From a virus: DNA of 63,081 bases. Under the pieces are notes generated by a model. It was not told the DNA's origin, made no database searches, and worked only from the letters and a program-made list of their open reading frames with translations. Made by a program: the position numbers and the translations under genes. The stretch lies in IMG/VR virus record IMGVR_UViG_3300010373_000008, positions 1 to 63,081 of that record. The stretch is one strand, 5' to 3'. This document shows, in pieces, positions 1,344 through 50,231 of this stretch. Every line of letters begins with the position of its first letter. Position 1 is the first letter of the stretch.

Positions 1344-1354
1344 AATTTTATTCC

Positions 1355-2668: not shown

Positions 2669-2671
2669 ATA

Positions 2672-5196: not shown

Positions 5197-5204
5197 AATA
5201 GTTC

Positions 5205-5579: not shown

Positions 5580-5586
5580 TATTTCC

Positions 5587-7399: not shown

Positions 7400-7634
7400 T
7401 CAGTGAATTGTAGAGAGGGATATCAGAGAGTTTAAATCCAATTGGATTCTCTCGAATAATTCGTACCGGCATCTTTACATCAAACACACATTCATTCTTG
7501 AAGTTGTTAACGTCTACGGCAGTGCTGGCTCCTACCTTGACGTAGATCTTATCGTTCTTAACCGTAGTACCATCAGAACGACGATCGTCACGAAGAGCAC
7601 GGAACATGTTACCAATCTTTAGGTCATTAAACAT
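7389..7634 (-). CDS. Hypothetical protein
   Basis: 81-aa ORF in the same-strand array. Confidence 0.5.
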   Translation of the reverse strand: MFNDLKIGNMFRALRDDRRSDGTTVKNDKIYVKVGASTAVDVNNFKNECVFDVKMPVRIIRENPIGFKLSDIPLYNSLNGV

Positions 7635-7645
7635 TTGTAATCTCC

Positions 7646-7954
7646 TTAAAGAACTTCGACGAATTTACGGGTAATCACGACGCCCGTTGTCGAGAAAACC
7701 TGCGCTTCGGTTTCGGACTTATGGTTCTGCCCCGATAGTCTGCCAGCTTCGTATTCATTTACATAAATTACCCTAGGTTCGGGCTTAATTCGATAATTCC
7801 AGGCAGGCCTGTTAAAACTTACAGTACCGTCGTCCTCAACATCTATCCAACGGGACAGAGCGCCAGGAGGAGTTGCCGCCAGGATCTGAATTGTAGCACC
7901 TTCTCCAAAGGCTTGGATGATAGGCAGTAATGCCAAAGCATCTTGACGTTTCAT
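7646..7954 (-). CDS. Hypothetical protein, member of a 3-copy paralog family
   Basis: Shares NYRIKPEPR with 9654..9977. Confidence 0.55.
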   Translation of the reverse strand: MKRQDALALLPIIQAFGEGATIQILAATPPGALSRWIDVEDDGTVSFNRPAWNYRIKPEPRVIYVNEYEAGRLSGQNHKSETEAQVFSTTGVVITRKFVEVL

Positions 7955-8018
7955 TATTGATTCCTGAGGTTGATAGTATAGAAAGGTTCGTATCGAACGA
8001 ATACAGCTAATGGAAGGG

Positions 8019-8318
8019 TCATTCAGGTACCTCTACCATTTTAATGACGCGCCCATCGGAGGGGGCGTAACTCAACGCGCTTTCTTTCATATCGAAGAAA
8101 ACAACGTCTTCATGTTCTCCTTCGGTAACTACTGCCCATTTAACCAAGGGTCCCTGGTTTACTCGATAATCAAAACGCGCCCAATCCCATGAAGGTTCTG
8201 GACCTGCGTCCCGATTCCAGAGAGCGTAGTCAGTATTGCCGTAGCCGCCCCACCATTCAATCTGCTTACCGTCCACAAATGCCTGCATCACTGCGATCTT
8301 TTCTGCTGTAGTTTTCAT
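8019..8318 (-). CDS. Hypothetical protein, member of a 3-copy paralog family
   Basis: Shares AFVDGK-IE with 9654..9977. Confidence 0.55.
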   Translation of the reverse strand: MKTTAEKIAVMQAFVDGKQIEWWGGYGNTDYALWNRDAGPEPSWDWARFDYRVNQGPLVKWAVVTEGEHEDVVFFDMKESALSYAPSDGRVIKMVEVPE

Positions 8319-8636
8319 TTAGATATCCTTGTAGACGGCAAAAGCGTCGTCATACGTAGGTACGTTATCCACTCCTCCCTCAAGTCCCCACAATAGATAC
8401 TTACCGGAAAACATAGCGCGTTTAGCTAACGTACGTCCTGACTTACGATTGAATTGATCTCCTTTAGAGCATCGTACGATTGACAATTTCCATGTCATAT
8501 CACCTGCAATCGCCGCATGTCGACGAGCAAACACCGTAGCATTGGTGTATTCCTTACCTTTCTTGCTGATGTGTGATTCGCGAATCTGGAAGTAAAGTTC
8601 CGGGGTAGTTGTGGATTTGCGGATTGCTTGAGTCAT
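8319..8636 (-). CDS. Hypothetical protein
   Basis: 105-aa ORF. Confidence 0.55.
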   Translation of the reverse strand: MTQAIRKSTTTPELYFQIRESHISKKGKEYTNATVFARRHAAIAGDMTWKLSIVRCSKGDQFNRKSGRTLAKRAMFSGKYLLWGLEGGVDNVPTYDDAFAVYKDI

Positions 8637-8752
8637 GAGTGTTCTCCTTTTATTTTGAGCAATTAGTATGTGACAAAGTTACTACGCACTTACAACAACT
8701 GCATAGCCACGTATCGCGGCTATTTACAGTAGGGATATAATGTAACATGTGA

Positions 8753-9124
8753 TTAACTTCCTTTAAGTAGTGATGCTGCGTATTCAAGGAGATACAGCTT
8801 CGGAGCAAGGAAGATCTTTAAAGCAACTGACGCTTTAGAAGTAGCGAGAACTGACATAACTGCAATAAGGGATACAAGAATAGTTCCTAGTAGCGCCTTA
8901 GGATCTACGTCAAGTTCCCTGAAGCATTCACTTTTGATTTTGTAAATGCCATAGCCTGCACCAATTGCATAAACAACAGTTAAGAAACAAGACTCTATTC
9001 CCTTAACCAAAAGTAGTTGTTGAATAACGTCTGGGGTCTGTTCTTGTAACCAAACCCCTGTCTGAGTAGCTACTTCCATACCTCTGGTAAGAATAGCAGC
9101 TATGGCTTCGTCTTTAGTGCTCAT
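8753..9124 (-). CDS. Membrane protein
   Basis: 123 aa with hydrophobic segments FLTVVYAIGAGYGIY and LLGTILVSLIAVMSVLA. Confidence 0.55.
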   Translation of the reverse strand: MSTKDEAIAAILTRGMEVATQTGVWLQEQTPDVIQQLLLVKGIESCFLTVVYAIGAGYGIYKIKSECFRELDVDPKALLGTILVSLIAVMSVLATSKASVALKIFLAPKLYLLEYAASLLKGS

Positions 9125-9126
9125 GT

Positions 9127-9348
9127 CTATCCCTCAATTTTGATATTTACAGGATCCCAATAGTATCTATCGTCGCAATCGAAAAACTTAGAATGGTATC
9201 TGCCGTACTTAGTCATGCCTAGCTTGTCTGATTTTATGATTATTCCTGCGTTAGGGCTAATGAACAATACTACATACCCATGATTCGTGGATTTGCGAGC
9301 TACAGGGAATACTGTACCTGCTTTCTCTTTCTCGACTTCAGTTAACAT
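9127..9348 (-). CDS. Hypothetical protein
   Basis: 73-aa ORF. Confidence 0.5.
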   Translation of the reverse strand: MLTEVEKEKAGTVFPVARKSTNHGYVVLFISPNAGIIIKSDKLGMTKYGRYHSKFFDCDDRYYWDPVNIKIEG

Positions 9349-9664
9349 CTCTGCTCCATGTTACTTTCTTTACGTTGTATGCTTTAATGACTTTTTCACA
9401 AATATCGCAAGGTTTTGCTAGTCCATGTTTACCATTAGCTCTGATTCTGATTACATGTAGGCTGTGTACTTTACCTCTCTTAGAGCCTTTAATCAACGCG
9501 GATAGTTCCGCATGGATAAAAGGACGGTTTGGATCGGAGGATCTAGCAGCATACATCTTCTGTAGAGGGTGAGTCTTGCTGTAGCTATTATAGCCTGTAG
9601 CTAAGATTCTACCTCTCTTGTCGAATGCTACCGCTATGATATTCTGACGAATGTTAGACATCAT
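9338..9664 (-). CDS. Cytidine/deoxycytidylate-deaminase-fold zinc deaminase
   Basis: HAELSAL and PCDICEKV (the H-A-E ... P-C-x-x-C zinc motif). Confidence 0.6.
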   Translation of the reverse strand: MMSNIRQNIIAVAFDKRGRILATGYNSYSKTHPLQKMYAARSSDPNRPFIHAELSALIKGSKRGKVHSLHVIRIRANGKHGLAKPCDICEKVIKAYNVKKVTWSRDVN

Positions 9665-9977
9665 CCACTGCTACGTAACGTACAGAACGTCCTGGCACAT
9701 TCGCCAGAATTTTATACTTATCGGCCTCGATCTTGGACGTAAAAGCAAGCGGCGGCATTCGATATTGATGTGTAACTACCCAGACCTCCCGTGGTTCAGG
9801 TTTGATGCGATAGTTGGTAGTAGGTTCTGCAAAATCGTGGCGAGTTCGACGCCCTGGATCGTACCATGTCCCGCTAACAGGATCGAACATTTCGATATCC
9901 TTACCATCAACAAAAGCTCTGATAACGGAAAGATTATCTAGAGCTTTCTTCCAATATTCTCTATTGCCATGTGACAT
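9654..9977 (-). CDS. Hypothetical protein, member of a 3-copy paralog family
   Basis: Carries AFVDGKDIE and NYRIKPEPR. Confidence 0.55.
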   Translation of the reverse strand: MSHGNREYWKKALDNLSVIRAFVDGKDIEMFDPVSGTWYDPGRRTRHDFAEPTTNYRIKPEPREVWVVTHQYRMPPLAFTSKIEADKYKILANVPGRSVRYVAVDDV

Positions 9978-10007
9978 TATATTCTCCTGTCTGGAAATTA
10001 GTAGGCG

Positions 10008-10658
10008 TCACGCGAAATGATCGTCATCTACGCTATCACGCTGCGCCCTAGCTGGATCGTTACGTAGCGTAGCTCTATCAAACATAGTCCAGTTGTAGTC
10101 GAGGATGTAATTATGCGAGTTGCCCTCCAGATTGTACTTATTAGGAGACACACTGATCTTTATGAAGGTACGCATCACCTGCGCAGTAGCTTCTCCTACA
10201 GCATGAACTACAGAGCTATCAAGCTTCAGTAGATGACGATCGGGGAAGGTCACTATATTACTAGGATCCGCCTGTTCTTCAAACTGTACGAGGGAACTTA
10301 CATGATCCTCCTCTACTACGAACAATCCTTTGTTGAATAGGGTAGGGATGCAATCGTACCACACATAGTTGATATCTGAGGATAAGAATCCATCAGCGTG
10401 CCATCCCGGGCGATTTGGAGTTACACCCCCTCCCACGAACATGCGCTTGGCTGTAACATACACGTAGTTGTCTACAAAGGCGCCTGGGTCATTCTCTCTA
10501 ACCTTCTCTAGCAGGGGGTGTAGAAAGCTAAGCCTCATATCTGTAACCCAGTTATCATCTCCCTTCATACTGACTGGTAGGTATAGATAGTACAAGACTT
10601 CTGAGGGCTTTAGTACAATCTCCCCCAAATCTTCAGGAAGCTTCTGCATAGATATCAT
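10008..10658 (-). CDS. Putative Fe(II)/2-oxoglutarate dioxygenase-like protein
   Basis: PGWHADG (HxD), VVHAVGE (distal His) and an R-x-x-x-x-x-S about 10 aa later. Motif spacing only. Confidence 0.4.
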   Translation of the reverse strand: MISMQKLPEDLGEIVLKPSEVLYYLYLPVSMKGDDNWVTDMRLSFLHPLLEKVRENDPGAFVDNYVYVTAKRMFVGGGVTPNRPGWHADGFLSSDINYVWYDCIPTLFNKGLFVVEEDHVSSLVQFEEQADPSNIVTFPDRHLLKLDSSVVHAVGEATAQVMRTFIKISVSPNKYNLEGNSHNYILDYNWTMFDRATLRNDPARAQRDSVDDDHFA

Positions 10659-10692
10659 AATTTATATCCCATCTCTTCAGCTTTCGACCAAG

Positions 10693-10720
10693 TGGCACCC
10701 CTAGACGGACTCGAACCGCC
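10693..10720 (-). tRNA. tRNA 3' fragment (T-arm, 3' acceptor strand and CCA); no intact upstream body
   Basis: The minus strand reads GGCGG-TTCGAGT-CCGTC-TAGGGGT-G-CCA. I could not fold the preceding 50 nt into D and anticodon arms. Confidence 0.5.
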
Positions 10721-10770
10721 AACCAATGGAGTAGAGGGAACTTTTCTATCCAATATACGGTCTAACTAAA

Positions 10771-10847
10771 TGGAACCCCCGCCGAGAATCGAACTCGGAG
10801 TCTCAAGCTTAGAAGGCAAGCGTTTTATCCAATTAAACTACGAGGGC
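10771..10847 (-). tRNA. tRNA-Arg (anticodon UCU), CCA encoded
   Basis: 77-nt cloverleaf: GCCCTCG/CGGGGGT acceptor stem, GTTT/AAAC D stem, anticodon loop CTTCTAA, CCGAG-TTCGATT-CTCGG T arm. The anticodon stem has two U-U mismatches. Confidence 0.65.
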
Positions 10848-10851
10848 ATTT

Positions 10852-11196
10852 ATGAAAACATGTTCAACATGTCGCATAGAAAAGCAAGATACAGAATTTT
10901 ACAACAAAGGCAAAGAAAATAGAACAAACAGTTCGTGCAAGTCGTGTTTTAATGCCTACTGCATAGAACGATGGAAACAACGGAAAATTAAAGTTATTAA
11001 GCAGTTTGGGAACAAATGTGCAGATTGCTCTGTTTCCCACCATCCTAACGTCTACGAATTTCATCACTTAAATCCAGAAACAAAAGACTTTTCATGGGAT
11101 AAAATCCGTCTATTCTCAGAAGAACGCATGCAAAAAGAACTAGCAAAGTGTATTCTGTTATGTGCAAATTGTCATCGTTTACGTCATGTTAAATAG
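10852..11196 (+). CDS. HNH homing-type endonuclease (opposite strand to its neighbours)
   Basis: Cys-rich CxxC pairs, and YEFHHLNP...LLCANCHRLRH (the H-N-H motif). Confidence 0.75.
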   Translation: MKTCSTCRIEKQDTEFYNKGKENRTNSSCKSCFNAYCIERWKQRKIKVIKQFGNKCADCSVSHHPNVYEFHHLNPETKDFSWDKIRLFSEERMQKELAKCILLCANCHRLRHVK

Positions 11197-11221
11197 CTCT
11201 ATCCAATTGAGCTATAGGGGC
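11196..11221 (-). tRNA. tRNA 5' fragment (5' acceptor strand and D arm) abutting the HNH stop codon
   Basis: The minus strand reads GCCCCTA-TA-GCTC-AATTGGATA-GAGC. GCCCCTA pairs 7/7 (one G-U) with TAGGGGT at 10697..10703. Confidence 0.5.
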
Positions 11222-11240
11222 GTATGTAACTAACTTGATA

Positions 11241-11258
11241 CCCTCTCTTTCGAGAGGG
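11241..11258 (-). terminator. Hairpin downstream of gene 11275..11586 (terminator or processing site)
   Basis: CCCTCTC-tttc-GAGAGGG, a 7-bp stem. The T-run after it is weak. Confidence 0.35.
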
Positions 11259-11274
11259 CATAGGGCTAATTACT

Positions 11275-11586
11275 TCAACATTCAAAAAGTAACTCAGCAG
11301 GGCCGCAGTTTTCATACCTACAGTTAGGATTCAAGCAATAATTTAGTGTCTCACCTGTATCTATGCCTGACTCCTTATCTACCATCCGTTCTTCCACCCT
11401 AGAATGATGTGCACTGGAAGTGACAGTCCCCGGCATTAACGACTTCAAGACCATAGATGTTGTTCTAATAGAATCTAGAGATTCGCCGTCCCTAAGTAAG
11501 AGCAGCGCTTCTCTCCATTTGCCCCATCCATGCAATAAATCTCCCGTAGATCCTTTAGGAAGATAGTGTACTTTATATATCTTCAT
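11275..11586 (-). CDS. Hypothetical protein
   Basis: 103-aa ORF. Confidence 0.5.
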   Translation of the reverse strand: MKIYKVHYLPKGSTGDLLHGWGKWREALLLLRDGESLDSIRTTSMVLKSLMPGTVTSSAHHSRVEERMVDKESGIDTGETLNYCLNPNCRYENCGPAELLFEC

Positions 11587-11597
11587 AACAACCTCAA

Positions 11598-12026
11598 TCA
11601 GCTTAGATCAATGCCAGCGGCTTTTAATTGTTCTACGAATTCAGGCAACAGCCGACTAATCTCAAATTTGTAACTCTCTACGAAGCCTTCGACGCCCATG
11701 AGAAGTCGCGCGACTGCCTGCGCACTGGAGTCGTGTGCATTTTGCAATATACAGATTAACCTAGAATGCTTTTCGGGAGCTAATCCGGCAACCACCAGAC
11801 CTCTCCACGCGGTGCTGACCGTAATTCCTTCTCCCACTTCGTCGTAGGGCATTTCTCTATGCTCAATCTTGATAAATGGAGCGGCCCCACATCCTATGCC
11901 TGAATACTTACAAAGGCCAGTATCTTCATCGATAGATGGCCGCCCGTTAGCAAGTACATGCTTGACGGACGTAAACACCACTTCAAACTCAGACATCTGT
12001 TCCAGATTATCGATCGTAATCATCAC
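11598..12026 (-). CDS. Hypothetical protein, weakly similar to 13875..14252
   Basis: 142 aa. GLCKYSGIGCGAAPF resembles GHCKYRGLNGLKCAAGCV. Confidence 0.55.
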   Translation of the reverse strand: MMITIDNLEQMSEFEVVFTSVKHVLANGRPSIDEDTGLCKYSGIGCGAAPFIKIEHREMPYDEVGEGITVSTAWRGLVVAGLAPEKHSRLICILQNAHDSSAQAVARLLMGVEGFVESYKFEISRLLPEFVEQLKAAGIDLS

Positions 12027-12034
12027 TTAACTCC

Positions 12035-12238
12035 TTATGTAAGGAACCAAAATAGATAAGCACAAGACGCTGCAAACAAAACAGGATCTATAACCGAAAT
12101 GGATTTGTGGGACTTATAATATCCTACGCACATGAAGAACAATATGAAGGATACTACAAAAGAACATGCTACTGCAATCAACGTGAGCATCATTAGTAAT
12201 CCTCCCACGGTAGAAATGTACCTTCTACGTCGTCCCAA
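12035..12238 (-). CDS. Small membrane protein
   Basis: 67 aa with two hydrophobic segments. Confidence 0.45.
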   Translation of the reverse strand: MGRRRRYISTVGGLLMMLTLIAVACSFVVSFILFFMCVGYYKSHKSISVIDPVLFAASCAYLFWFLT

Positions 12239-12717
12239 TCTATATATGGATCGAAATACTCGTCGTCGGAGCAGTCGATCTGGTCATAGTAGAAGTCATC
12301 ATAGTACCTATCATCATCTAGGAGATAAGCAGAATAAGCGTCATCCTCTTCTGTCCAACTAGGACAATTCAATTCTTCCAACAAAGTGATTCTGACGCGT
12401 CTTTCTTGAAGGGTCACAGCAAGAACACTATTGCCGCCGCGCCATTTAGCATGTCGCGTTTTGGAACAGCATTGCCTACTGCACATTGCCCTGTTGTTCA
12501 TCCTCTTTTTAGTAGCTTTATAATCACTCCGTTCAAAAATGCCGTTGTGACGCCACCAATAGAATTCCCCGCCCTGAGGCCGGTGTTTCAGCGTCTTGAT
12601 GAAAACCCTATCAGTATGATGACGTCGAATAGCCCTAATCTTAGTAGGAACAGGGATAAGATCCGGCTCAGCGTCCAGCTCGTCCATGTACCGCTCGAAT
12701 GCATCATCTAAGTTCAT
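12193..12717 (-). CDS. Hypothetical protein with a basic core and an extremely acidic Asp/Tyr-rich C-terminus
   Basis: The C-terminus reads LLDDDRYYDDFYYDQIDCSDDEYFDPYIDWDDVEGTFLPWEDY. Confidence 0.55.
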   Translation of the reverse strand: MNLDDAFERYMDELDAEPDLIPVPTKIRAIRRHHTDRVFIKTLKHRPQGGEFYWWRHNGIFERSDYKATKKRMNNRAMCSRQCCSKTRHAKWRGGNSVLAVTLQERRVRITLLEELNCPSWTEEDDAYSAYLLDDDRYYDDFYYDQIDCSDDEYFDPYIDWDDVEGTFLPWEDY

Positions 12718-13028
12718 CAGGCATACTCCTTAGGATTCCACAGGCAATCTTCCCACGCTACTACCTTATGACCTTCAGGTACGATCGGCTCCAAAGCAGA
12801 CGCTCGACAGAAATATTCCCCCTTAGAAAGTTCTGCACCCTGTAATGAAGCATCTGAGATAAAAGTACAATCGTTGTCATCGCCCAAAATCGATTTATGT
12901 CCGGGGATAGGTAGGCAAGGAGTGCCCTTCGGATAGTTACCATATCCTCCGAAGAATCCCTCCGCGTTTAAGTTAGACTTGTATCTAGCGCGCGCCAGCC
13001 TAACCCTTTGACCTTTGTAGAATTTCAT
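12717..13028 (-). CDS. Hypothetical protein; first gene after the island terminator
   Basis: 103-aa ORF. Repeat R1 lies 12 nt upstream of its ATG. Confidence 0.55.
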   Translation of the reverse strand: MKFYKGQRVRLARARYKSNLNAEGFFGGYGNYPKGTPCLPIPGHKSILGDDNDCTFISDASLQGAELSKGEYFCRASALEPIVPEGHKVVAWEDCLWNPKEYA

Positions 13029-13039
13029 TGGATTATCCC

Positions 13040-13066
13040 ATATCGGGGATGAGAACGATTCTCATT
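13040..13066 (-). promoter_or_regulatory. Repeat R1, copy a: 27-nt element with a 7-bp stem / 3-nt loop hairpin
   Basis: atatcggggATGAGAAcgaTTCTCATt, identical to 15744..15770. It sits just upstream of the leftward gene start at 13028. Confidence 0.45.
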
Positions 13067-13067
13067 A

Positions 13068-13114
13068 GTATCGGCCTACGGCCTGCAATGATGCAGGATC
13101 GGAGATCCGATAAG
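13068..13114 (+). repeat. Repeat R2, copy a: 47-nt multi-hairpin element, perfect inverted partner of 15278..15324
   Basis: Reverse complement checked base by base, 47/47. It contains the hairpins GGCCtacGGCC, CCTGCAatgaTGCAGG and ATCGGAgaTCCGAT. Confidence 0.9.
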
Positions 13115-13119
13115 ACGGC

Positions 13120-13146
13120 AAAAAGCCTCCCCCGTTAAGGGGAGGC
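13120..13146 (-). terminator. Intrinsic terminator ending the GC-rich leftward cassette
   Basis: GCCTCCCC / GGGGAGGC 8-bp stem, followed on the minus strand by TTTTT. Confidence 0.65.
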
Positions 13147-13169
13147 GATATATTAGCCTTAGGCTTGTA

Positions 13170-13298
13170 TTAGCGCTTGATGCTACGGCGCGCTTTGTAG
13201 TGGACCTGAGTGTCGCCTATCCATTCAAACCCGGAGCAACGGAGTTTCAGGCCGGGAAGGATGGCAACCATAGCGGGCTTTACGTAATTGATTCGCAT
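13170..13298 (-). CDS. Small protein (42 aa), translationally coupled
   Basis: Own translation: MRINYVKPAMVAILPGLKLRCSGFEWIGDTQVHYKARRSIKR. Its ATG shares a base with the upstream TGA. Confidence 0.4.
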   Translation of the reverse strand: MRINYVKPAMVAILPGLKLRCSGFEWIGDTQVHYKARRSIKR

Positions 13299-13567
13299 CA
13301 CACACGCTCCATTAGGTTAAAGGTTTTACGCTGGTCAGTTCCTTGTTCCTTTTGTCGATCCACGCTCCTGCGTATAAAATTTCTGAAATAGTCGCGATTA
13401 AGAGCCGTGTCGTTGAAAACGTACGCGCGTGAGTATGGCCCTATGCCGTCCACGTAAACGTAATCAAAACCAGACACGTCCGACTTAACAATTTTACCCA
13501 AAAAGCCCTCGCGGACTATAAAATCATCAGGTCCCATACCGCTTATTACGAACACTTTGGTTGACAT
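13298..13567 (-). CDS. Hypothetical protein (GC-rich cassette)
   Basis: 89-aa ORF. Confidence 0.55.
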   Translation of the reverse strand: MSTKVFVISGMGPDDFIVREGFLGKIVKSDVSGFDYVYVDGIGPYSRAYVFNDTALNRDYFRNFIRRSVDRQKEQGTDQRKTFNLMERV

Positions 13568-13578
13568 ATGAGTATCCC

Positions 13579-13878
13579 TTAAACCTTACAGACTCGCACC
13601 TTGTGCTGTCCGCCGATTGTTTTACCGTTGAATTGGTAGAATTTAGTGCGCCCAGAAGTCGCTACTTCAAAGGGTGACCGGGATTTCACGGCATTACTCG
13701 GGCTGACTGTTCCCCTGAGGGATCTACCCCCCGGCTTTATCAGGCGCTCTTGATTCCGTGCCAGTTCCAGCGCTCGCGCTGACATGTCGGATGCTCGCGA
13801 GATATCCCCGCGAGTATGCTTGCAGCGCGCTACATTCAAACTATGCTCCAGCATAGCAATGGGATCTGGGATTTTCAC
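13579..13878 (-). CDS. Hypothetical protein (GC-rich cassette)
   Basis: 99-aa ORF. Confidence 0.55.
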   Translation of the reverse strand: MKIPDPIAMLEHSLNVARCKHTRGDISRASDMSARALELARNQERLIKPGGRSLRGTVSPSNAVKSRSPFEVATSGRTKFYQFNGKTIGGQHKVRVCKV

Positions 13879-14252
13879 GAATCTAATATCGCGCTGTCGA
13901 GATTGAAACAGACGGCAACGGCCTGCAACATCTCCCTCCAGTAACTTACTACGTAACCGTCATGCACAAGCTGCAAGCGACCAATTAATTCAATGTGGAC
14001 GAGCGGTCGGCTGCTTGACCGTGTTGCGATAATGGACATCAAATGATCCCAGCTTTTACCCTCAAAAAAAGGATCGTATTCGTCATCTGATATAACGCAT
14101 CCAGCCGCGCATTTCAGTCCATTCAGGCCGCGATACTTACAATGACCATTAAAGTCCGTTGACCTAGCCTTCTGAGTCATAAGGTGCCGGGCTACTTGAT
14201 CGAAAACTTGCTGTGGTGTCGCAAGGTGTAAATTAGCAAGCGTGATATGCAT
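13875..14252 (-). CDS. Hypothetical Cys-rich protein (GC-rich cassette)
   Basis: ORF 13875..14342. The ATG at 14252 is preceded by GGGAG, giving MHITLANL... Confidence 0.55.
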   Translation of the reverse strand: MHITLANLHLATPQQVFDQVARHLMTQKARSTDFNGHCKYRGLNGLKCAAGCVISDDEYDPFFEGKSWDHLMSIIATRSSSRPLVHIELIGRLQLVHDGYVVSYWREMLQAVAVCFNLDSAILDS

Positions 14253-14345
14253 ATAAACTCCCGATTTAATCGGATGGTACCCAATTGATACCGCAGTTCC
14301 CCCTCCCAGAGTAATATCTGGGAGGGGAAAGTACGCTAGCAACTA

Positions 14346-15212
14346 TTAGCCGTTAGCAGCAACACGCTCGACCACTCCATCATCCGCAAGGGATTCTTCC
14401 AGAGCCTTGATGGCCTTGTCGGTTGCATCGGGTTCGTCCGCAATCTCAGTCGGATTAGCAGCCAGAGCCGCTTCGCGGAACTTCTCGCACCACGGATCCA
14501 GAGCCTCAAGAAACGCATTGGTCAGAACAGGGTCCGCATGTTTCCACGAATCCATGATAGCGCTCACCATACCCAGAGCGGATTGCTGTTCGTGGGTACC
14601 GGCCTTATAAGCCGCTGCGAACTGTGTACTGACTTCGCGTGCGGTGTCATTGCGTTCCTTAGCGTCGTTGTGGCTCTTGAGTTCGTCCGGTGACATGGCC
14701 TGAATCTTCGCCGATGCAGTAGCTTCCACGACATTCCGGACGGTCATGTTCGGTGCGAGAACAGCGCCCGCCTCGTACGCTGAAATGACATTAGCCCGAT
14801 ACTGATCGATAGTTGTTTGGGCCTTTTTCACCACGCGGTCGAGTTTGAACTTGTCGCCGTAACGCGTTTTGATGACCGTTGCCGCCTTAGTCGGGATCAA
14901 TTCCCGTCCAGCTTCGTCGGTCGTGATCTGATCGAAAGCACCATAACCCGCCTCGGAGAGTGCCCTTGCGATTACTGCCGAGCCGATAGCAGCCTTGATG
15001 CCCGCAAAGACTTCATTAGCCGCTGCTACAGCATCGTCACCTTCATGCTCGCCAACTGCATCGCACACAAGGCCGATTGTTTCCTTCCATGTATTCGAGC
15101 GTCCGTGCACCGCCGTTGCGGTCAACAGGGCATTGCTCAATAGGCCGTAGGCCACGCGGTTGACACCTTCGATCCCCTTCGGGACAAAACTAACCAATTT
15201 CACGTTGCTCAT
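14346..15212 (-). CDS. Hypothetical Ala/Glu-rich protein (GC-rich cassette)
   Basis: ORF 14346..15248. The ATG at 15212 is preceded by GAGGGG, giving MSNVKLVSF... Confidence 0.6.
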   Translation of the reverse strand: MSNVKLVSFVPKGIEGVNRVAYGLLSNALLTATAVHGRSNTWKETIGLVCDAVGEHEGDDAVAAANEVFAGIKAAIGSAVIARALSEAGYGAFDQITTDEAGRELIPTKAATVIKTRYGDKFKLDRVVKKAQTTIDQYRANVISAYEAGAVLAPNMTVRNVVEATASAKIQAMSPDELKSHNDAKERNDTAREVSTQFAAAYKAGTHEQQSALGMVSAIMDSWKHADPVLTNAFLEALDPWCEKFREAALAANPTEIADEPDATDKAIKALEESLADDGVVERVAANG

Positions 15213-15277
15213 TGTATACCCCTCACAATAATCTAGATGGTAGATCAATCTGACGTTCAGACTCTACCGCTATACTC

Positions 15278-15324
15278 CTTATCGGATCTCCGATCCTGCA
15301 TCATTGCAGGCCGTAGGCCGATAC
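15278..15324 (-). repeat. Repeat R2, copy b (inverted partner of 13068..13114)
   Basis: 47/47 reverse-complement identity. Confidence 0.9.
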
Positions 15325-15342
15325 GAAGCATAACGCTAATGT

Positions 15343-15531
15343 CTAGAGCGGAGTTACAGGTAATACTTCCAAGGGTCCATACCATCCCCCGTCCTCTGGC
15401 AAGCGCATCTGCCTGTACATGTGTATAGCTTCTCGCTGCGCCTTGCTGACGATTCGGGACGTTTCTTCGACGTCGCGCGTTACTATCGCGAATCTGTGTC
15501 CAGTTTCTAGCTGGAAGATAGTAGCTTTCAC
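15343..15531 (-). CDS. Small early protein (62 aa from GTG 15531)
   Basis: Same frame as ORF 15343..15579. GAGGAA lies 6 nt before the GTG, which overlaps the upstream TGA (GTGA). Confidence 0.45.
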   Translation of the reverse strand: MKATIFQLETGHRFAIVTRDVEETSRIVSKAQREAIHMYRQMRLPEDGGWYGPLEVLPVTPL

Positions 15532-15683
15532 CGAAATTTCCTCGCAAGGTAGAATGCCCATTCCACGGCAATGATGCACCTTGACGCTGCGATTTTCCCT
15601 TCTATCGCTTCGCGTGTCCGCATCTTGATTACCGCGTCCGCGAGTCGCCGGACTTGTTTGATCGCTTGTCTACGTGTCATCAT
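15528..15683 (-). CDS. Small early protein (51 aa); first ORF of the leftward arm
   Basis: Own translation: MMTRRQAIKQVRRLADAVIKMRTREAIEGKIAASRCIIAVEWAFYLARKFR. AAGGGA lies 7 nt upstream. Confidence 0.4.
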   Translation of the reverse strand: MMTRRQAIKQVRRLADAVIKMRTREAIEGKIAASRCIIAVEWAFYLARKFR

Positions 15684-15689
15684 ATCAAT

Positions 15690-15716
15690 TTCCCTTATCG
15701 CCGCTACGCGTCTGCA
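15690..15716 (-). repeat. Repeat R3, left arm of a 27-bp inverted repeat (26/27 with 16317..16343)
   Basis: ttcccttatcgccgctacgcgtctgca. A shorter third copy lies at 15774..15795. Confidence 0.85.
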
Positions 15717-15743
15717 AAGTTTGGTCGGGTTCTATATCCCCGT

Positions 15744-15770
15744 ATATCGGGGATGAGAACGATTCTCATT
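15744..15770 (-). promoter_or_regulatory. Repeat R1, copy b (27/27 identical to 13040..13066)
   Basis: Same hairpin, ATGAGAA-cga-TTCTCAT. It lies 60 nt upstream of the leftward ATG at 15683. Confidence 0.45.
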
Positions 15771-15805
15771 CGCATATCACCGCTACGCGGCTGCACAGTA
15801 AAGCG

Positions 15806-15825
15806 TTGCAGGCCGTAGGCCGATA
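15806..15825 (-). repeat. Partial third copy of R2 (20 nt)
   Basis: ttgcaggccgtaggccgata equals 15305..15324. Confidence 0.8.
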
Positions 15826-16315
15826 AACGCATCTAGATAGCGCACCCAATAGCCGGCATGCGCTAGCGAAAGCGTCTCTACTCACCACTAGATTGACAAG
15901 GAGCACCCGATAGGACCAGTGACCGCAAGCGCCTTGTGGCTCGCGAGATAGTCCGCCCACGGTTGGGCAAGGGACAGTGCAAAGGCGTCTCGCCTAAGCA
16001 TGAGCCACTATACCTACCCCTAACTGAACGTAAGCTGAACGTGCTACCCCGGTTAGCGCCCCTGGAACACCCTCTCCGACCCCCTGCCGATGTAAAGGAA
16101 ACTTGACACAGGCTGTCATCGAGAATGAGAAGCAGTTGCAATTGGACTGTCGATGATGTAGATAGGACTCATTCGCAATTCCCCTGAGCGCAGACCCCCG
16201 GAGTAGCAGCTTGGAAAAAGGGGACCCACTGCGTGGGGTCGGTGGCCCCTATCCTCCAGGGAGCATAAATAAATACAAAACAATAGGGAATTAATTAATA
16301 AGAAGTGCAGGAAAT
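15826..16315 (+). ncRNA. Candidate structured noncoding RNA or control region (ORF-free, GC-rich, many hairpins)
   Basis: Only short antisense-looking ORFs occur here. Hairpins include ATCTAG..(TAGCGCA/TGCGCTA)..CTAGAT at 15831..15893, GTCC-GCCCA-cggt-TGGGC-aa-GGGAC at 15951..15975, and GTGCTA-ccccggt-TAGCGC. Several stems need T-G pairs on the plus strand, so plus is the tentative strand. Confidence 0.3.
16215..16250 (-). terminator. Terminator-like hairpin readable on the minus strand
   Basis: The minus strand reads AGGGGCCACC-GACCCCAC-gca-GTGGGTC-CCC-TTTTT. Confidence 0.3.
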
Positions 16316-16885
16316 ATGCAGCCGCGTAGCGGCGATAAGGGAACTAATGCCCAGGAAATAGATCTAATAAGTATGAATCTAGAAGAAGTAATTAAAAGTT
16401 TGAAGATAAGTACCCCTACTATAACTGAGCCAGAGCCTCTAAGAGCGCCAGCTACAGTAAAGCGTAGGAGAAGTACTCGTAGGGATACGGATGCGCTTAG
16501 AATCGCTAAGACGAGGGCATATGACGTACGTAGATACAGTACAGTAAAGGGGCTGTGGAGACAGCAGAAGAAGTGGCTGAAGCAAAGAGCAGCTAGATAC
16601 AGGGCTAAGGGTAATGAGCTAAAGGCTAAGGGATGTGAGTTAGTCATAACTCTGGAGGAGTGGACTAAGTTGTGGGAATCAGCGGGGCAGGTGTGGTTCC
16701 ACGGAAAGTGGGTACAGGCCCATGAGGCTAGAGGACCTAGGAAAGATAGGGATGTACAGTTAATACGAATAGACGATAACGGTCCTTGGGAGCTTAGTAA
16801 CCTGAAGATCATCTACAACAAGGGTACTATAGCAGATGGAAGAAGAGTTACCGCAGTGCAGGAGCGTAGCGACGATATTGAATAA
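16316..16885 (+). CDS. Arginine/lysine-rich hypothetical protein (possible nucleic-acid binding); first rightward ORF
   Basis: 189 aa. N-terminal half: KRRRSTRRDTDALRIAKTRAYDVRRYSTVKGLWRQQKKWLKQRAARYRAKG. C-terminal part: ITLEEWTKLW...LIRIDDNGPWELSNLKIIY. The start codon is uncertain. Confidence 0.5.
   Translation: MQPRSGDKGTNAQEIDLISMNLEEVIKSLKISTPTITEPEPLRAPATVKRRRSTRRDTDALRIAKTRAYDVRRYSTVKGLWRQQKKWLKQRAARYRAKGNELKAKGCELVITLEEWTKLWESAGQVWFHGKWVQAHEARGPRKDRDVQLIRIDDNGPWELSNLKIIYNKGTIADGRRVTAVQERSDDIE
16317..16343 (+). repeat. Repeat R3, right arm of the 27-bp inverted repeat
   Basis: tgcagccgcgtagcggcgataagggaa. It overlaps the ATG at 16316. Confidence 0.85.
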
Positions 16886-17039
16886 AGATCAGGTGTACTA
16901 CCTTAAGAAAAAGATGCAGGGCTTGGAGCAGGGCGACAAGACCGATAAGATTAAGGAGATTGCCCTTGAGCGTAGGCTTAAGCAGTGGAGAGTCTGGGGG
17001 CTTAAGGAATACCGAGATAAAAATAATTGAAAATAGTTG

Positions 17040-17500
17040 GGGAACTTTTACGACTATTTGGCTATCTAATGTTGTCTAAGTGTTATCAAGACTTAACAGT
17101 CTTTGCATCTAACCATGCAGTCACGGTAAGTGACGATACGTACTCCGTACGTTAATAGGAACGCTGATCTGTCGTTGCTCGGAAGAAAAGCAGATCAACC
17201 TTAGTCTAAGGATAGACATAAAGGAGCTAGTGCAGAGACACTAGCAATATACAATCGGTCCTAGTCCTCTCCGGCCAGAGGGGCTAGGGCCTGGACGTAT
17301 AACCCACTAACCACCCCTTAAGACCGGGGGCGGAGACGATAAACCAATTAAGCGGACATCTTATCAGAGCATTGCTCTTGCATCTAACCATGCAGGAACG
17401 CAGTTCCGATAAGACGATAAGGAGACCTGACTCGGTATCAAGGAGTAGCTTAGATCTGGTGTATTTGGAATTGTTCATATCGAAACGATATCTGATGCAA
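17040..17500 (+). promoter_or_regulatory. Hairpin-dense ORF-poor leader with a duplicated 18-nt hairpin
   Basis: ttgcatctaaccatgcag occurs at 17103..17120 and 17378..17395. A 14-bp hairpin at 17257..17291 needs T-G pairs on the plus strand. Several 5-7-bp hairpins follow, including ACGTACtccGTACGT, GGAACgcaGTTCC and ATATCGaaaCGATAT. Confidence 0.35.
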
Positions 17501-17765
17501 TGGAACGAAGTGAAGTGATAAGAGTTCTGGATAATTGGGTTAGTGGTACTTAACTTGGATAGTGTATCTCATTATCAAAGCATAGCTGTTGTACTGATTA
17601 GATTTAGGTGTATTGCTGTTTAGTGTAGGTGTAAGCTGCTGTCTAATCTCGACAGCTCTGTTTACAGCTAAACGAACAGGATGTCCCTAAGGTCTATGAT
17701 CTTGTTTTATCTGAAGTTACACAGTTCCATGAGTCAAACACATGCAAGCCCGGAGGGCTGATAAG

Positions 17766-18092
17766 ATGGCATTTAATTTCAATCCAATTCAAAAGCGTAA
17801 CGAGTGGTCTGTTCAGATGAAGGCTGCTCTGTACAAAGTTCTAAAGTCAATGCCTGGAGCTTCTGGTACTCCTCAGGTTACACCTACCTCACTAACCAAC
17901 AGCACAGCAGGTACTGCTAATGATACTGTACAAGCTACTCCTCAGACGGTAGCAGCAGGTACGGATACTTCAGCAGCACAGCTAGTAGCTACTAACGCAT
18001 CTCTTACTATCATCAACAACAACTTTGCAGATCTGGTTGTAAAGGTTAATCAGATCCTAACAGCTCTGAAGAATGCCGGTCTAATGTCTTAA
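17766..18092 (+). CDS. Hypothetical (virion-associated?) protein
   Basis: ORF 17742..18092. The ATG at 17766 is preceded by GGAGGG. Confidence 0.55.
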   Translation: MAFNFNPIQKRNEWSVQMKAALYKVLKSMPGASGTPQVTPTSLTNSTAGTANDTVQATPQTVAAGTDTSAAQLVATNASLTIINNNFADLVVKVNQILTALKNAGLMS

Positions 18093-18116
18093 TGAAGAAC
18101 TACCTATGGGGTTTTT

Positions 18117-18488
18117 ATGTCTCGTTCAAAACCCGCTGGGAACAGTTCAAACAATGGACAAGTTCAATCGGCTCAGAAGATTAGTCCCGCAGAAGGGACA
18201 CGGACGGTAGTCGATACTACCCACACCCCTCCCCCGAAAGGTACGGAGGGGAAGATGCTAACCTCTAGGAAGTTCCTACTGTGCTTCTTCGTTTTACTCT
18301 TTAGCTTCCTATTGGTAGCCTATGACAAAGATGTCAGGGCTTTGGAGATCATAGTTCCGGCAGTACTGGCAGTGTACTTCGGAGCTAATGTATCTCAAGA
18401 TTATGTATTCAGGCGTACTCACAAGTCTTCGTACAAAGAAGATGCAGATGTACCATCCAGAGATTTAAGTGACTTAAGGCAAAGATAA
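18117..18488 (+). CDS. Membrane protein, holin candidate
   Basis: Two hydrophobic segments, FLLCFFVLLFSFLLVAY and IIVPAVLAVYFGANV. It lies two genes upstream of the endolysin. Confidence 0.4.
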   Translation: MSRSKPAGNSSNNGQVQSAQKISPAEGTRTVVDTTHTPPPKGTEGKMLTSRKFLLCFFVLLFSFLLVAYDKDVRALEIIVPAVLAVYFGANVSQDYVFRRTHKSSYKEDADVPSRDLSDLRQR

Positions 18489-18802
18489 TGGCAAACGAAG
18501 TACTGTTGGCACCTACCAACGATAGAGAGACATCGACTACAGTTACATGCGACGGTATTGCTCGCATTCAGATAGGTTTGTTTGTAAGTGCTAATATGCC
18601 GATTAGAGAAAGGGTAGGAGCTAGGGTTCTGGTAGAGAATCCCGAGGGAACTATTCCTTACAGGTACCCAGATAAGCGTATGAATGTAGTAGTATTAACG
18701 GCTAACGAGCCTGTCATCTACATCACAGAAGCTGGTACTTATTCTGTAGATAAGCCTCTTACTGATCAGCGAGTTGGTGTATTCGCAGATACGGGCGCAT
18801 AA
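18488..18802 (+). CDS. Hypothetical protein
   Basis: 104-aa ORF. Confidence 0.55.
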   Translation: MANEVLLAPTNDRETSTTVTCDGIARIQIGLFVSANMPIRERVGARVLVENPEGTIPYRYPDKRMNVVVLTANEPVIYITEAGTYSVDKPLTDQRVGVFADTGA

Positions 18803-19246
18803 ATGAACGAATGGTTTTCTAGAGAAGTAGAAGAACTTAAAGACGACGAGGGATTTAGATCTAAGCCCTACAAAGATACACTCGGTTACTGGACTATCGG
18901 ACATGGACACCATGATGGTGTTACGGCCAACACAGCTCCCATAAATGAAGAGGATGCTGAGTCTTTGTTAATCGAGCGTATGGAGAAGGCTTGGGATGAT
19001 GCTCGGTACGTATGTCCTAGCTTCGATCAGCTTGATGGCCCGCGTAAGGGCATCATGTTAAATCTAGCATACCAACTAGGGCGTAAGGGCTTGTCGGGCT
19101 TTCACGGCACTCTCAGGGCCATAGATGAGCAAGATTGGGATACAGCAGCAACTAGACTTATGAATTCCCTGTTCGCTAGACAGACTCCTAGCAGAGCTAA
19201 GCGAGCAGCCTATAGACTAAAGTACGGTGAATATGCATCCCGCTAA
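18803..19246 (+). CDS. Endolysin, T4-lysozyme-like (GH24) muramidase
   Basis: ELKDDEGFRSKPYKDTLGYWTIGHGH motif. Confidence 0.75.
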   Translation: MNEWFSREVEELKDDEGFRSKPYKDTLGYWTIGHGHHDGVTANTAPINEEDAESLLIERMEKAWDDARYVCPSFDQLDGPRKGIMLNLAYQLGRKGLSGFHGTLRAIDEQDWDTAATRLMNSLFARQTPSRAKRAAYRLKYGEYASR

Positions 19247-46530: not shown

Positions 46531-46539
46531 TAGGGTACC

Positions 46540-49527: not shown

Positions 49528-49551
49528 TAAGATTCTCCAGTCTTTAGTATG

Positions 49552-50227: not shown

Positions 50228-50231
50228 ATGC

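Follow-up and report, generated by a model that had tools for sequence, protein, structure and literature searches.

The window that we have analyzed is a stretch of 63,081 nucleotides from a viral record (IMGVR_UViG_3300010373_000008). It belongs to a lineage of podophages with an SU10/phiEco32-like virion, whose relatives are DES1 and StenR_269. A 47-nt sequence found at 13068-13114 appears again at 15278-15324, 2163 nt away, as a perfect reverse complement. Identity between these two arms reaches 98% over 50 nt (13065-13114 against 15278-15327), and an exact 20-nt third copy of part of the same sequence is located at 15806-15825. Both the inverted repeat and its partial third copy had been described in a sequence-only reading of this DNA, and both are borne out by sequence comparison. 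A perfect inverted repeat of this length within 63 kb is far above chance expectation. It is not an assembly artefact: The possibility of a chimera had been raised, but the k-mers of the source contig, a MEGAHIT k141 assembly of 63,099 bp, span each of the arms. An independent Logan assembly with k=31 breaks exactly 30 nt into each arm. No direct repeats flank the arms, and target-site duplications are absent.

The segment between the arms opens the leftward early arm, as the same reading had indicated, and it contains five ORFs, all on the minus strand. The first one, p288 (14346-15212), is conserved in this phage group as its first leftward early gene, and codes for an alanine-rich, all-helical protein whose family is small and rare. 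Its AlphaFold model has a pLDDT of 48, too poor for fold searches, and a peptide-pattern search of IMG/VR found no match for this protein. The p125 gene (13875-14252) is a member of phrog_17693, a promiscuous accessory gene present in many unrelated phages, often with several copies per genome. The p99 ORF (13579-13878) has a GTG start without a Shine-Dalgarno sequence and is not called in either of the two public assemblies, it is doubtful as a gene. We have considered p125 and p99 as a single frameshifted gene and rejected it, since p125 homologs are complete at about 120 amino acids. The p89 gene (13298-13567) is an ORFan accessory gene, and a small ORF of 42 or 43 amino acids (13170-13301), called in one assembly only, is the last one before the terminator. 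These ORFs had been described as five overlap-coupled units. All five exist, but overlaps are found at only two junctions, 125/99 and 89/42. On the other side of the left arm lies p103, for which a search only returned the protein itself.

The segment has a GC content of 51.5%, against 44.6% for the genome, which places it in the top 2.7% of stretches of the same size. The proposed GC-rich cassette is real as far as its average composition is concerned, but the arms are not its limits: The GC-rich zone starts at about 13.2 kb and continues past the right arm to about 16.3 kb, while p89 (45%) and p125 (47%), inside the arms, do not differ from the average. Most of the excess comes from p288, which is both the largest and the GC-richest gene and makes up 40% of the segment. 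Its homolog in L005, a related phage discussed below, has 58.6% GC in a genome with 49.5%; judging from these sequences, a high GC content is a trait of the p288 family.

A clean intrinsic terminator had been proposed at 13120-13146, and we find it there. It ends the p288 operon on the minus strand, with a 9-bp stem (13146-13125) containing seven G:C pairs and a 4-nt loop, followed by TTTTT; the left arm's 13 kb contain no other strong terminator. A perfect 17-bp palindrome, ATGAGAACGATTCTCAT, which resembles an operator, is found at 13049-13065, between the left arm and the start codon of p103. Its paralogue at 15753-15769 comes right after the minus-strand unit of the central hairpin pair described below, reading leftward. 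The core of this second copy, AATGAGAATCnTTCnCAT, is invariant in L003 (another related phage) and L005, and the palindrome that comes after leftward units is invariant across the three phages. The order of elements at the left arm is terminator, hairpin pair, palindrome, ribosome-binding site and gene. At the other end of the segment, the 5' leader of p288 (GTATAGCGGTAGAGTCTGAACGTCAGATTGATCTACCATCTAGAT, 15231-15276, minus strand) has the potential to fold into a hairpin, and L003 shares it with 95% identity. A G+C-rich hairpin without a T-run (14285-14342, minus strand), also conserved in L003, follows p288 and may be an RNA 3' or processing structure.

Each arm consists of two hairpins of the same family, placed head-to-head. 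In the left arm (13068-13114), a minus-strand unit at 13068-13087, TGCA-GGCC-GTA-GGCC-GATAC, faces p103, and a plus-strand unit at 13092-13114, TGCA-GGATC-GGA-GATCC-GATAAG, faces the terminator, with a 4-nt spacer (ATGA) between them. In the right arm, the unit with the GGATC stem (15278-15300, minus strand) faces p288 and is separated by 65 nt from the downstream start codon of this gene, and the unit with the GGCC stem (15305-15324, plus strand) faces away. Identity between the arms stops precisely at the module edges, GTATC and GATAAG. As for the suggested fold into three short hairpins, the two family hairpins and a TGCA/TGCA centre are present in the arm. Nevertheless, since the whole arm is quasi-palindromic, its single strand reaches minimum energy as a single long, imperfect hairpin (-13.1 kcal/mol, z = -4.4).

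The consensus of this family is formed by TGCA, a stem of 4-6 bp, a 3-nt loop (mostly G-N-A) closed by a C:G pair, the matching stem and GATAAG. We have detected 13 copies of the structured motif, when 0.16 would be expected by chance and 200 shuffles gave a maximum of 2. All 13 have motif positions within 13,087-17,743, and the family is confined to 13.06-17.77 kb, around the point where transcription diverges, a region near the minimum of the cumulative GC skew. The members score 25-41 bits with a covariance model, which finds no further member in the rest of the genome at E < 0.5. One divergent pair (15774-15826), conserved in L003, is located exactly at the strand switch. Its units, separated by an 11-nt spacer, are GCCGC-GTA-GCGGT (15774-15795, minus strand) and GGCC-GTA-GGCC (15807-15826, plus strand); the latter corresponds to the third copy of the sequence-only reading. 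Two other divergent pairs share the same 8-nt spacer, TCTAACCA: 17082-17139, in a non-coding stretch (units 17082-17107, minus, and 17116-17139, plus), and 17360-17413 (units 17360-17382, minus, and 17391-17413, plus). The remaining units are single. TGCA-GACGC-GTA-GCGGC-GATAAG (15694-15716, minus strand) lies 10 nt before the ATG that opens a 51-aa ORF. TGCA-GCCGC-GTA-GCGGC-GATAAG (16317-16339, plus strand) lies about 33 nt before p189, the first rightward gene, counted to its likely true start (MNLEEV, ~16373). Finally, TGCA-AGCCC-GGA-GGGCT-GATAAG (17743-17765, plus strand) abuts the ATG (17766) of a 108-aa gene.

Pairing is found in 98.6% of the stem cells, against 63% in shuffles and 17–46% when the partners are slid. 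Compensatory double changes are present at four of the five stem positions, the closing C:G pair is invariant, and only one of 71 stem cells is a G:T wobble. The flanks, TGCA and GATAAG(R), are conserved. Triloops of the C:G-closed G-N-A type appear in 10 of the 13 units, three of which contain an exact GCGTAGC, and loops which depart from this form are restricted to units facing no gene. According to nearest-neighbour energies, single hairpins are only marginally stable (-3 to -6 kcal/mol). For p108, p51, p189 (true start), p103 and p288, a unit precedes the start codon by 0-65 nt, and one unit of each divergent pair faces antisense or no gene. Neither the orientation of the units nor their distance to start codons is random, and they are placed at the 5' ends of early transcription units.

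A comparison with relatives had been suggested as a check of the cassette, on the understanding that finding its genes without the repeats would speak against it. This is what we observe. The first leftward gene beside the control region is a p288 homolog both in L003 (85% amino acid identity) and in L005 (36%), and the 47-mer is absent from both. L005, the closest long relative, lacks p125, p99, p89 and p43. The site in L003 is not empty: It is missing the inner 41 nt of the right arm and retains the outer flanks of the module, TTTATC-AGC-GATAAG. L003 also lacks the segment ~15340-15716, including the hairpin unit at 15694-15716, and the ends of this deletion abut copies of the motif, which is the one informative comparison of this kind. 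Its orthologous central unit keeps the hairpin with a fully swapped, compensatory stem. From these comparisons, the segment is one conserved lineage gene joined to variable accessory genes.

Outside L003, the related loci examined do not contain the family in its present form. No recurrent hairpin flanks are present in DES1, L004, L005, L010 or L011, the covariance model detects no members in 439 kb of related loci, and a generic motif scan of IMG/VR gave at least two structured motifs in 0 of the 118 loci listed. Its absence from L005 and these other related loci indicates that the family is young, its conservation being seen in one related contig. The region from 12 to 17 kb had no megablast match among 50,697 phage records, and exact scans of IMG/VR with the core of the 47-mer and three other blocks conserved in L003 returned nothing. 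A concatenated query of eleven small proteins gave no match. Exact-sequence matches in JGI metagenomes and GTDB genomes were dismissed as chance, as they had no other homology.

A scan for sigma-70-like sites found 8 between 11 and 19 kb, where 11 were expected; none is in the control region and none coincides with a hairpin unit. The motif itself was rejected as a sigma-70 promoter: TGCA and GATAAG are spaced 12-13 nt apart, conservation is missing in the hexamers upstream, and no site of the scan falls at a unit. It was also rejected, by eye and on spacing, as a sigma-54 promoter. Searches of Pfam, PHROG, NCBIfam and PDB revealed no phage RNA polymerase, no sigma factor was found, and a pattern search gave no RNA polymerase catalytic motifs. 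We have paid attention to a giant virion protein of 1882 amino acids, which matches internal virion protein C of the T7 type and is similar, in its HExxH region, to T7-type internal core proteins. Catalytic patterns, Pfam, PHROGs, NCBIfam and single-sequence and family-profile searches of PDB do not support it as an RNA polymerase. Among solved structures, its family profile does not hit any RNA polymerase; with a pLDDT of 44, the AlphaFold model of the conserved C-terminal 883 amino acids is too poor for a fold search. Another candidate, a protein of 1064 amino acids, is a tail protein.

Each arm is a bidirectional control module, made of two head-to-head family hairpins which are capable of forming a cruciform. 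We lean towards the view that the arms are duplicated or gene-converted copies of a bidirectional early promoter or regulatory module, with a geometry like that of phage N4 and an architecture like that of the PeSLs of T4-type phages. The units are most likely early promoters, or elements tightly associated with promoters, which would be recognised in part by their structure, as in N4; we infer their promoter function and direction. Transcription would start at or just after GATAAG and proceed in the direction opposite to TGCA. From its place inside the long control region, the right arm would drive the first leftward early operon (p288, p125, possibly p99, p89 and p42), which would stop at the intrinsic terminator. 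Past this terminator, the left arm, together with the conserved 17-bp palindromic operator, would restart transcription towards p103 and p174. As the stems of other family members differ, the two perfectly identical arms point to a single module that was recently duplicated or gene-converted. As the module is quasi-palindromic, its orientation should be functionally irrelevant, so an inverted copy can persist.

Known systems share some of these features. N4-type promoters have a stem of 5-7 bp, a 3-nt loop and a GC-rich heptamer (PMC4496689), while LUZ7 has nine early hairpin promoters, some of them in tandem, with stems of at least 4 bp and a start 13-14 nt from the loop centre (PMC9163698). 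As in these N4-like phages (Schitoviridae), the DNA hairpin is short and GC-rich, its stem has 4-7 bp, and its 3-nt loop, closed by a C:G pair, has a purine in the centre. Variable stem positions are kept only as pairs and the flanks are conserved, as in N4. Several copies are present, only in the early region and some in tandem, with a presumably fixed short distance between the hairpin and its gene side. On the other hand, this phage has no recognisable RNA polymerase of N4 or other type, its virion module is SU10/phiEco32-like, and its flank consensus, TGCA ... GATAAG, is unrelated to that of N4. Divergent pairs, frequent here, are not described in N4 or LUZ7. Polarity may also be different. 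The stable G-N-A loop of N4 is on the template strand and the start is on the 5' side of the loop (PMC4496689), whereas our G-N-A loops are on the TGCA...GATAAG strand, which is non-template if transcription runs towards GATAAG. Gene positions, flank conservation and purine starts favour this direction; in pairs, both polarities have the same outcome. The N4 analogy is formal, not exact: The N4 polarity would predict transcription away from the genes faced by single units.

PeSLs (promoter-early stem-loops) of T4-type phages are composite terminator/promoter motifs which mediate modular shuffling (PMC2839356, PMC4122927). Like them, our module is a repeated sequence of ~50 bp with a stem-loop and a presumed early promoter, placed between small early genes in a hyperplastic region. 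Indels between relatives may also end at its copies, as in the one informative comparison, L003. Homologs of p125 occur in such regions of T4-like phages. PeSLs, however, are found in myoviruses as direct repeats with a recognisable sigma-70 early promoter, whereas we find a quasi-palindromic hairpin pair without a sigma-70 consensus, and its two identical copies are inverted. By this analogy, the repeated modules probably also act as recombination points which shuffle small early genes. A more ambitious proposal would be that a podophage lineage unrelated to N4 starts its early genes at extruded DNA-hairpin promoters. They would be read by an unrecognised virion-delivered polymerase or by the host RNA polymerase in an unconventional, structure-dependent mode, and the promoter pairs would double as recombination hot spots which duplicate, invert and shuffle early genes. 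We consider this stronger version possible, if rather unlikely.

The hairpins might instead act in RNA, as 5'-UTR stabilisers, processing sites, nut/boxB-like antitermination signals or operators for a phage RNA-binding protein controlling early-gene translation, the arms being two copies of such a site. Units are in fact found in 5' leaders, just before ribosome-binding sites or overlapping them: The 3' flank doubles as a Shine-Dalgarno sequence in GATAAGGAG and GATAAGGGA, and at 17743 the loop and 3' stem form GGAGGG and precede the ATG by 9 nt. RNA hairpins that are bound by proteins typically have covarying stems and conserved single-stranded flanks, and the fold of a whole pair as a long imperfect hairpin recalls an RNase III site. 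Nevertheless, we find a role in RNA unlikely. With divergent pairs on both strands, any given transcript would carry half of the units in the wrong sense, and the early promoters would remain unaccounted for. The C:G-closed G-N-A triloop is the signature of unusually stable DNA mini-hairpins (PMC13037366, PMC4496689) and does not correspond to any known stable RNA loop. The scarcity of G:T wobbles and the lack of a matching Rfam family argue in the same direction.

The sequence-only reading also considered a segment that can invert, with the arms as crossover sites, so that the 2163 bp would flip by a recombinase or by phage homologous recombination to give two genome isomers. Phage recombination is able to use a perfect 47-bp inverted repeat as its substrate, a 5'-3' exonuclease and a T7-type endonuclease I resolvase are encoded in the genome, and the k=31 assembly graph fits either orientation. 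The k141 assembly, however, shows a single orientation, and the relatives retain the orientation of p288 without any arms. Pfam annotation and targeted scans of the whole genome revealed no serine or tyrosine recombinase, invertase, integrase or transposase. Moreover, nothing would be switched: A flipped segment would keep the same GGATC unit before p288 and the same terminator closing the operon. As the arms are symmetric bidirectional modules, inversion would leave gene drive unchanged, so there is no switch. The Mu G and P1 C segments (Hin/Gin/Cin) are similar in being phage segments of ~2 kb between short perfect inverted repeats. They differ from our case, which has no invertase gene or enhancer, an inversion that would alter neither expression nor protein C-termini, and arms that belong to a larger regulatory repeat family. 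We regard an invertible segment as improbable, although inversion at low frequency by general recombination may occur.

An acquired moron or mobile cassette, with five genes imported jointly and the repeats as ends or scars, is very unlikely and largely refuted by the relatives. What stands of this proposal is that most of the small genes are accessory and variable and, as in phage morons, have a terminator of their own and a putative promoter in a variable early region; p125 is promiscuous, and the part from p125 to p42 is absent from L005. The elevated GC would also fit, had it not been a family trait of p288 which extends past the right arm. The repeat does not delimit a mobile unit: It encloses p288, vertically inherited and syntenic in L003 and L005 without the repeat, and the arms are members of a 13-copy family. 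Neither a transposase nor target-site duplications are present, and the site retained in L003 still has its outer flanks. As judged from the genomes compared, the segment is not a transposable unit, and it is not a dedicated invertible switch either.

Selfish miniature palindromic repeats (REP/BIME- or MITE-like) without a regulatory role, or signals for replication priming or origins, would account for hairpins with a conserved flanking tetranucleotide in inverted pairs, which recall REP/BIME and the substrates of HUH enzymes, for their position near the GC skew minimum and for the stable GCGNAGC mini-hairpins, first described in phage origins (PMC13037366), but they are most improbable, as the genome encodes no RAYT/IS200-type transposase, target-site duplications are missing, only two copies are identical, the units are non-randomly placed with respect to start codons, and compensatory stem changes with conserved flanks indicate selection on structure and not recent proliferation.

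In summary, our preferred reading is that of a duplicated bidirectional early control module. The p288 gene, conserved as the first early gene, is a reasonable candidate for host takeover. A small palindromic control module that is copied in either orientation may give rise to perfect inverted repeats which mimic transposon ends or invertible switches, which calls for caution in phage annotation and in the interpretation of cassettes in early regions rich in anti-defence genes. To our knowledge, DNA-hairpin promoters which depend on structure have so far been described in N4-like phages only, together with their giant virion polymerase. If our reading is true, this would be a second, independent hairpin family with N4 geometry, in a phage without a recognisable RNA polymerase. 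In that case, either hairpin promoters would be more widespread than thought, or other machinery would be able to read such structures.

The 47-mer GTATCGGCCTACGGCCTGCAATGATGCAGGATCGGAGATCCGATAAG at 13068–13114 is the exact reverse complement of 15278–15324, and a 20 nt partial copy, also exact, is found at 15806–15825, as the sequence-only reading had reported. The arms are 2163 nt apart, and a repeat finder lengthens their match to 50 nt at 98% identity. The window matches a MEGAHIT contig (k141; 63,099 bp; ENA ERZ27256675) in which both 47-nt arms are bridged by 141-mers. An independent k=31 Logan assembly (SRR6185512) has a 2223-bp contig made up of the inter-arm segment and, at both ends, exactly 30 nt of the arm; the adjoining contig begins within the left arm. 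Since 141-mers span both arms and the Logan contigs agree, the repeat is no assembly artefact, and the chimera that had been considered is not borne out.

Each arm pairs two short hairpin units, set head to head on either side of a 4-nt spacer and written TATC-GGCC-TAC-GGCC-TGCA and TGCA-GGATC-GGA-GATCC-GATAAG. Read in one direction, the units have a common pattern: TGCA, a stem of 4–6 bp, a 3-nt loop, the matching stem and GATA(A/C)(G). A structure-aware scan detects 13 units, all within 13,087–17,743, against 0.16 expected and a maximum of two in 200 Markov shuffles. They are arranged as five divergent pairs (spacers of 4, 4, 8, 8 and 11 nt) and three singles. A covariance model built on these units and two from a relative scores the 13 at 25–41 bits; the next matches reach 10–20 bits and are mostly in the same region, and over the 63 kb no match with E < 0.5 is found outside it. 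Stem cells are paired in 98.6% of cases, compared with 63% in shuffles and 17–46% when the partners are slid, and compensatory double changes are found at four of the five stem positions. The pair closing the loop is invariably C:G, the loop on the TGCA...GATAAG strand is GGA, GTA or GCA in 10 of the 13 units, and three units contain the exact mini-hairpin sequence GCGTAGC. To judge from these stems and loops, the hairpin is under selection. No Rfam family matches it.

With its two related, head-to-head units, the arm is a quasi-palindrome in its own right, so in functional terms an "inverted" copy hardly differs from a direct one. As a single strand, one long imperfect hairpin is favoured (−13.1 kcal/mol, z = −4.4). 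The two arms are identical right up to the module boundaries and no further, and the other family members differ in their stems; these observations indicate that one module was recently duplicated or gene-converted. A repeat of this kind is what duplicating a palindromic control module ordinarily produces. Both arms are copies of the same hairpin module, which is recurrent, bidirectional and constrained in its structure, and which is located at the boundaries of early transcription units.

Leftward genes start at about 16 kb and rightward ones at about 16.3 kb, and a divergent hairpin pair (15774–15826) lies exactly at the strand switch. In the TGCA to GATAAG direction, units are found 0 nt upstream of the start codon of p108 (ATG), 10 nt upstream of that of p51, 39 nt upstream of p103, the next leftward gene beyond the left arm, and 65 nt upstream of p288, which lies between the arms. 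For p189, the distance from the unit to the probable true start downstream is about 33 nt. Around the left arm, reading leftward, the stop codon of the last ORF is followed by the terminator, then the hairpin pair, the 17-bp palindrome, the ribosome-binding site and p103. The intrinsic terminator proposed at 13120–13146 is indeed strong: on the minus strand, a 9-bp stem (13146–13125) with seven G:C pairs is followed by T5. It is the sole strong terminator in the 13-kb left arm of the genome.

A long divergent non-coding control region occupies 15684–16315, possibly 15213–16372: The p51 and p78 ORFs (15343–15683) overlap each other and are called in neither public assembly, so the region may extend to 1.16 kb. 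Two of its blocks (15892–15955 and 16066–16107) are 87–93% identical to L003, a Logan contig of 1484 bp from a related phage, while their flanks diverge. No sigma-70-like site is found in the control region. Eight are present in 11000–19000 and 15 in 1–13200, when shuffles predict 11 and 24.6 ± 5.1, a hint that the phage may avoid, or not rely on, canonical host promoters in its left arm.

Further to the right, the 735 nt at 17031–17765 have no convincing ORF and contain two divergent hairpin pairs. Strong hairpins (17224–17246, 17258–17293 and 17311–17335) and terminator-like sites (17638–17656 on the plus strand, 17245–17226 on the minus strand) are also present, and Rfam gives no match. This stretch may encode small early RNAs.

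The perfect 17-bp palindrome ATGAGAACGATTCTCAT is located between the left arm and the p103 ribosome-binding site (13049–13065), with a second copy after the central leftward unit (15753–15769). The palindrome ATGAGAAnnnTTCTCAT is also found in L003 (437–463) and in L005 (4141–4160 and 4342–4378), a related 65-kb IMG/VR contig with a portal identity of 50%; no other non-coding element is as well conserved among the three phages. Four modules from these phages share its core AATGAGAATCnTTCnCAT without change. The sole variable position is uncompensated, which fits a protein operator, not a structural hairpin. The palindrome looks like a putative operator of an early regulator.

We infer that the units would act as early promoters or promoter-bound elements. 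N4-type promoters have a stem of 5–7 bp, a 3-nt loop and a GC-rich heptamer, the identity of the stem being free if pairing is kept (PMC4496689), and the geometry of our units matches. LUZ7 has nine early hairpin promoters, some of them tandem, with stems of at least 4 bp and starts 13–14 nt from the loop centre (PMC9163698). With the same spacing, transcription from our units would begin on a purine, at the conserved GATAAG or immediately past it. The TGCA-to-GATAAG polarity is favoured because of the adjacent genes, the longer conservation on the GATAAG side, the putative palindromic operator downstream and the restriction of non-canonical loops to units facing no gene. On the other hand, N4 has its G-N-A loop in the template strand, and by that rule our units would be read the other way. 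Divergent pairs give bidirectional output under both polarities, so either choice leaves our interpretation of the arms unchanged. The architecture seen here, a terminator, a stem-loop and a presumed promoter repeated between small early genes, with the ends of an indel relative to L003 at repeat copies, has a parallel in the PeSL modules of T4-type phages (PMC2839356, PMC4122927). PeSLs carry a sigma-70 consensus, however, and the modules described here do not. The main rival is that the hairpins work in RNA, as leader stabilisers, processing or antitermination sites, or translational operators. Their leader positions and overlaps with Shine-Dalgarno sequences fit, but their occurrence on both strands and their DNA-type G-N-A loops are left unexplained.

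The promoter model is weakest on the side of the polymerase, as we recognise neither an RNA polymerase nor a sigma factor in the phage. A virion protein of 1882 aa (34566–40214) is Cys-free and has a HEAVH zincin-like motif; its HExxH region and residues 652–786 resemble the T7-type internal virion protein C. Its homolog in Stenotrophomonas phage StenR_269 has been annotated, on indirect grounds only, as a putative virion-associated RNA polymerase (PMC10747016). Nothing here supports this annotation; RNA polymerase motifs are absent and the family profile matches no polymerase among solved structures. A single-sequence model of the conserved C-terminal part was unusable. The 1064-aa protein is a tail protein.

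Between the arms lies a single operon, which opens with a conserved gene, continues with variable accessory genes and closes at a terminator; it does lie at the start of the leftward early genes. Its five leftward ORFs exist, but the overlap claimed for all of them is found at only two junctions. The 99-aa ORF has a GTG start, no Shine-Dalgarno sequence, and is called in neither of the two public assemblies; the 42-aa ORF is called in one only. The small-domain protein p125 (13875–14252) belongs to phrog_17693 and has homologs, 37–51% identical, in many unrelated phages of Pseudomonas, Caulobacter, Sinorhizobium, Burkholderia and Vibrio; the family, also found in phages of Synechococcus, often has several copies per genome, up to 3–4. 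We have found no relative of p288 in Pfam, PHROG, NCBIfam or PDB, and its AlphaFold model is all-helical, with low confidence (pLDDT 48). The remaining inter-arm ORFs are ORFans. In L002, the Logan contig of the same phage (SRR6185512), a single G-to-T change at the equivalent of ~15170 produces a premature stop in p288 (E15*), suggesting a population polymorphism or a dispensable gene. The p288 leader (15231–15276), which can fold into a long hairpin, shares 95% identity with its L003 counterpart, more than the coding DNA does (78%). An invertible segment has no recombinase to serve it and its inversion would switch nothing; low-level flipping by the phage's own recombination functions may occur. 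As for selfish palindromic repeats, no transposase, target-site duplications or near-identical copies are found.

The segment is GC-richer than the genome, as had been noted (51.5% and 44.6%, top 2.7% of windows of the same size), but the GC-rich zone (~13.2–16.3 kb) crosses the right arm. The p78 and p51 ORFs and the control region have 52–53% GC, while p89 (45%) and p125 (47%), between the arms, are average. The main source of the signal is p288, with 55.5% GC and a GC3 of 0.59, compared with 0.385 ± 0.05 in 26 long genes.

This podovirus encodes an SU10/phiEco32-like portal, adaptor and capsid, together with a family A DNA polymerase, ribonucleotide reductase, Thy1 and an amidoligase/GATase cluster. 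Its closest annotated relatives, Xanthomonas phage DES1 and StenR_269, are distant (~40% capsid identity). The cluster (1–11000 and 45000–63000) includes amidoligase (COOH-NH2_lig), GATase, GGACT and ATP-grasp-type genes, accompanied by dCMP deaminase, Thy1, MazG and dGTP diphosphohydrolase-like genes, a combination suggestive of nucleotide or DNA modification chemistry. A tRNA-Arg(TCT) is found in the left arm of the window (10771–10847, minus strand).

Among 5.8 billion clustered proteins, p288 has only two close homologs, from the same phage and from L003 (85%); its remote family has 10 representatives among 1.84 billion. L003 aligns to the control region and has the central hairpin pair: One unit, with its GGCC stem, is identical; in the other, the hairpin is preserved although its stem has changed completely (GAACC-GGA-GGTTC, compared with GCCGC-GTA-GCGGT). 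The pair is followed by the same palindrome and directly by the p288 homolog; ~15340–15716, with one unit and two small uncalled ORFs, is absent. Of the right arm, L003 also lacks the inner 41 nt and keeps only TTTATC-AGC-GATAAG, followed by the conserved leader; this degenerate remnant suggests that these quasi-palindromes are also deletion-prone. In L005, the first leftward gene is a p288 homolog (281 aa, 36% identity) adjoining an 830-nt non-coding region, the first rightward gene is a p189 homolog, and p64, p123 and p141 homologs keep their order. No homolog of p125, p99, p89, p43, p103, p174, p51, p78 or p108 is found in L005. Its p288 homolog has 58.6% GC in a 49.5% genome (GC3 0.67, 18% Ala), which makes the GC excess a trait of the family. 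Short hairpins with 3-nt loops and different flanks lie near the palindrome box of L005, and tRNA-like sequences appear by eye at ~5650–5840, just right of its control region. Members of the TGCA/GATAAG family are absent from L005 and from 439 kb of other related loci, so the family in its present form is young and lineage-specific. The putative palindromic operator and p288 are older.

Both the synteny and the composition of p288, whose homologs in L003 and L005 occur without the repeats, contradict the idea of an acquired cassette bounded by the inverted repeat. The sequence-only reading is partly supported: The small genes are accessory, but the arms do not delimit a mobile or invertible unit. 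The hairpin module family is a more interesting object than the repeat; it is possibly a second, N4-independent case of structure-dependent early promoters.
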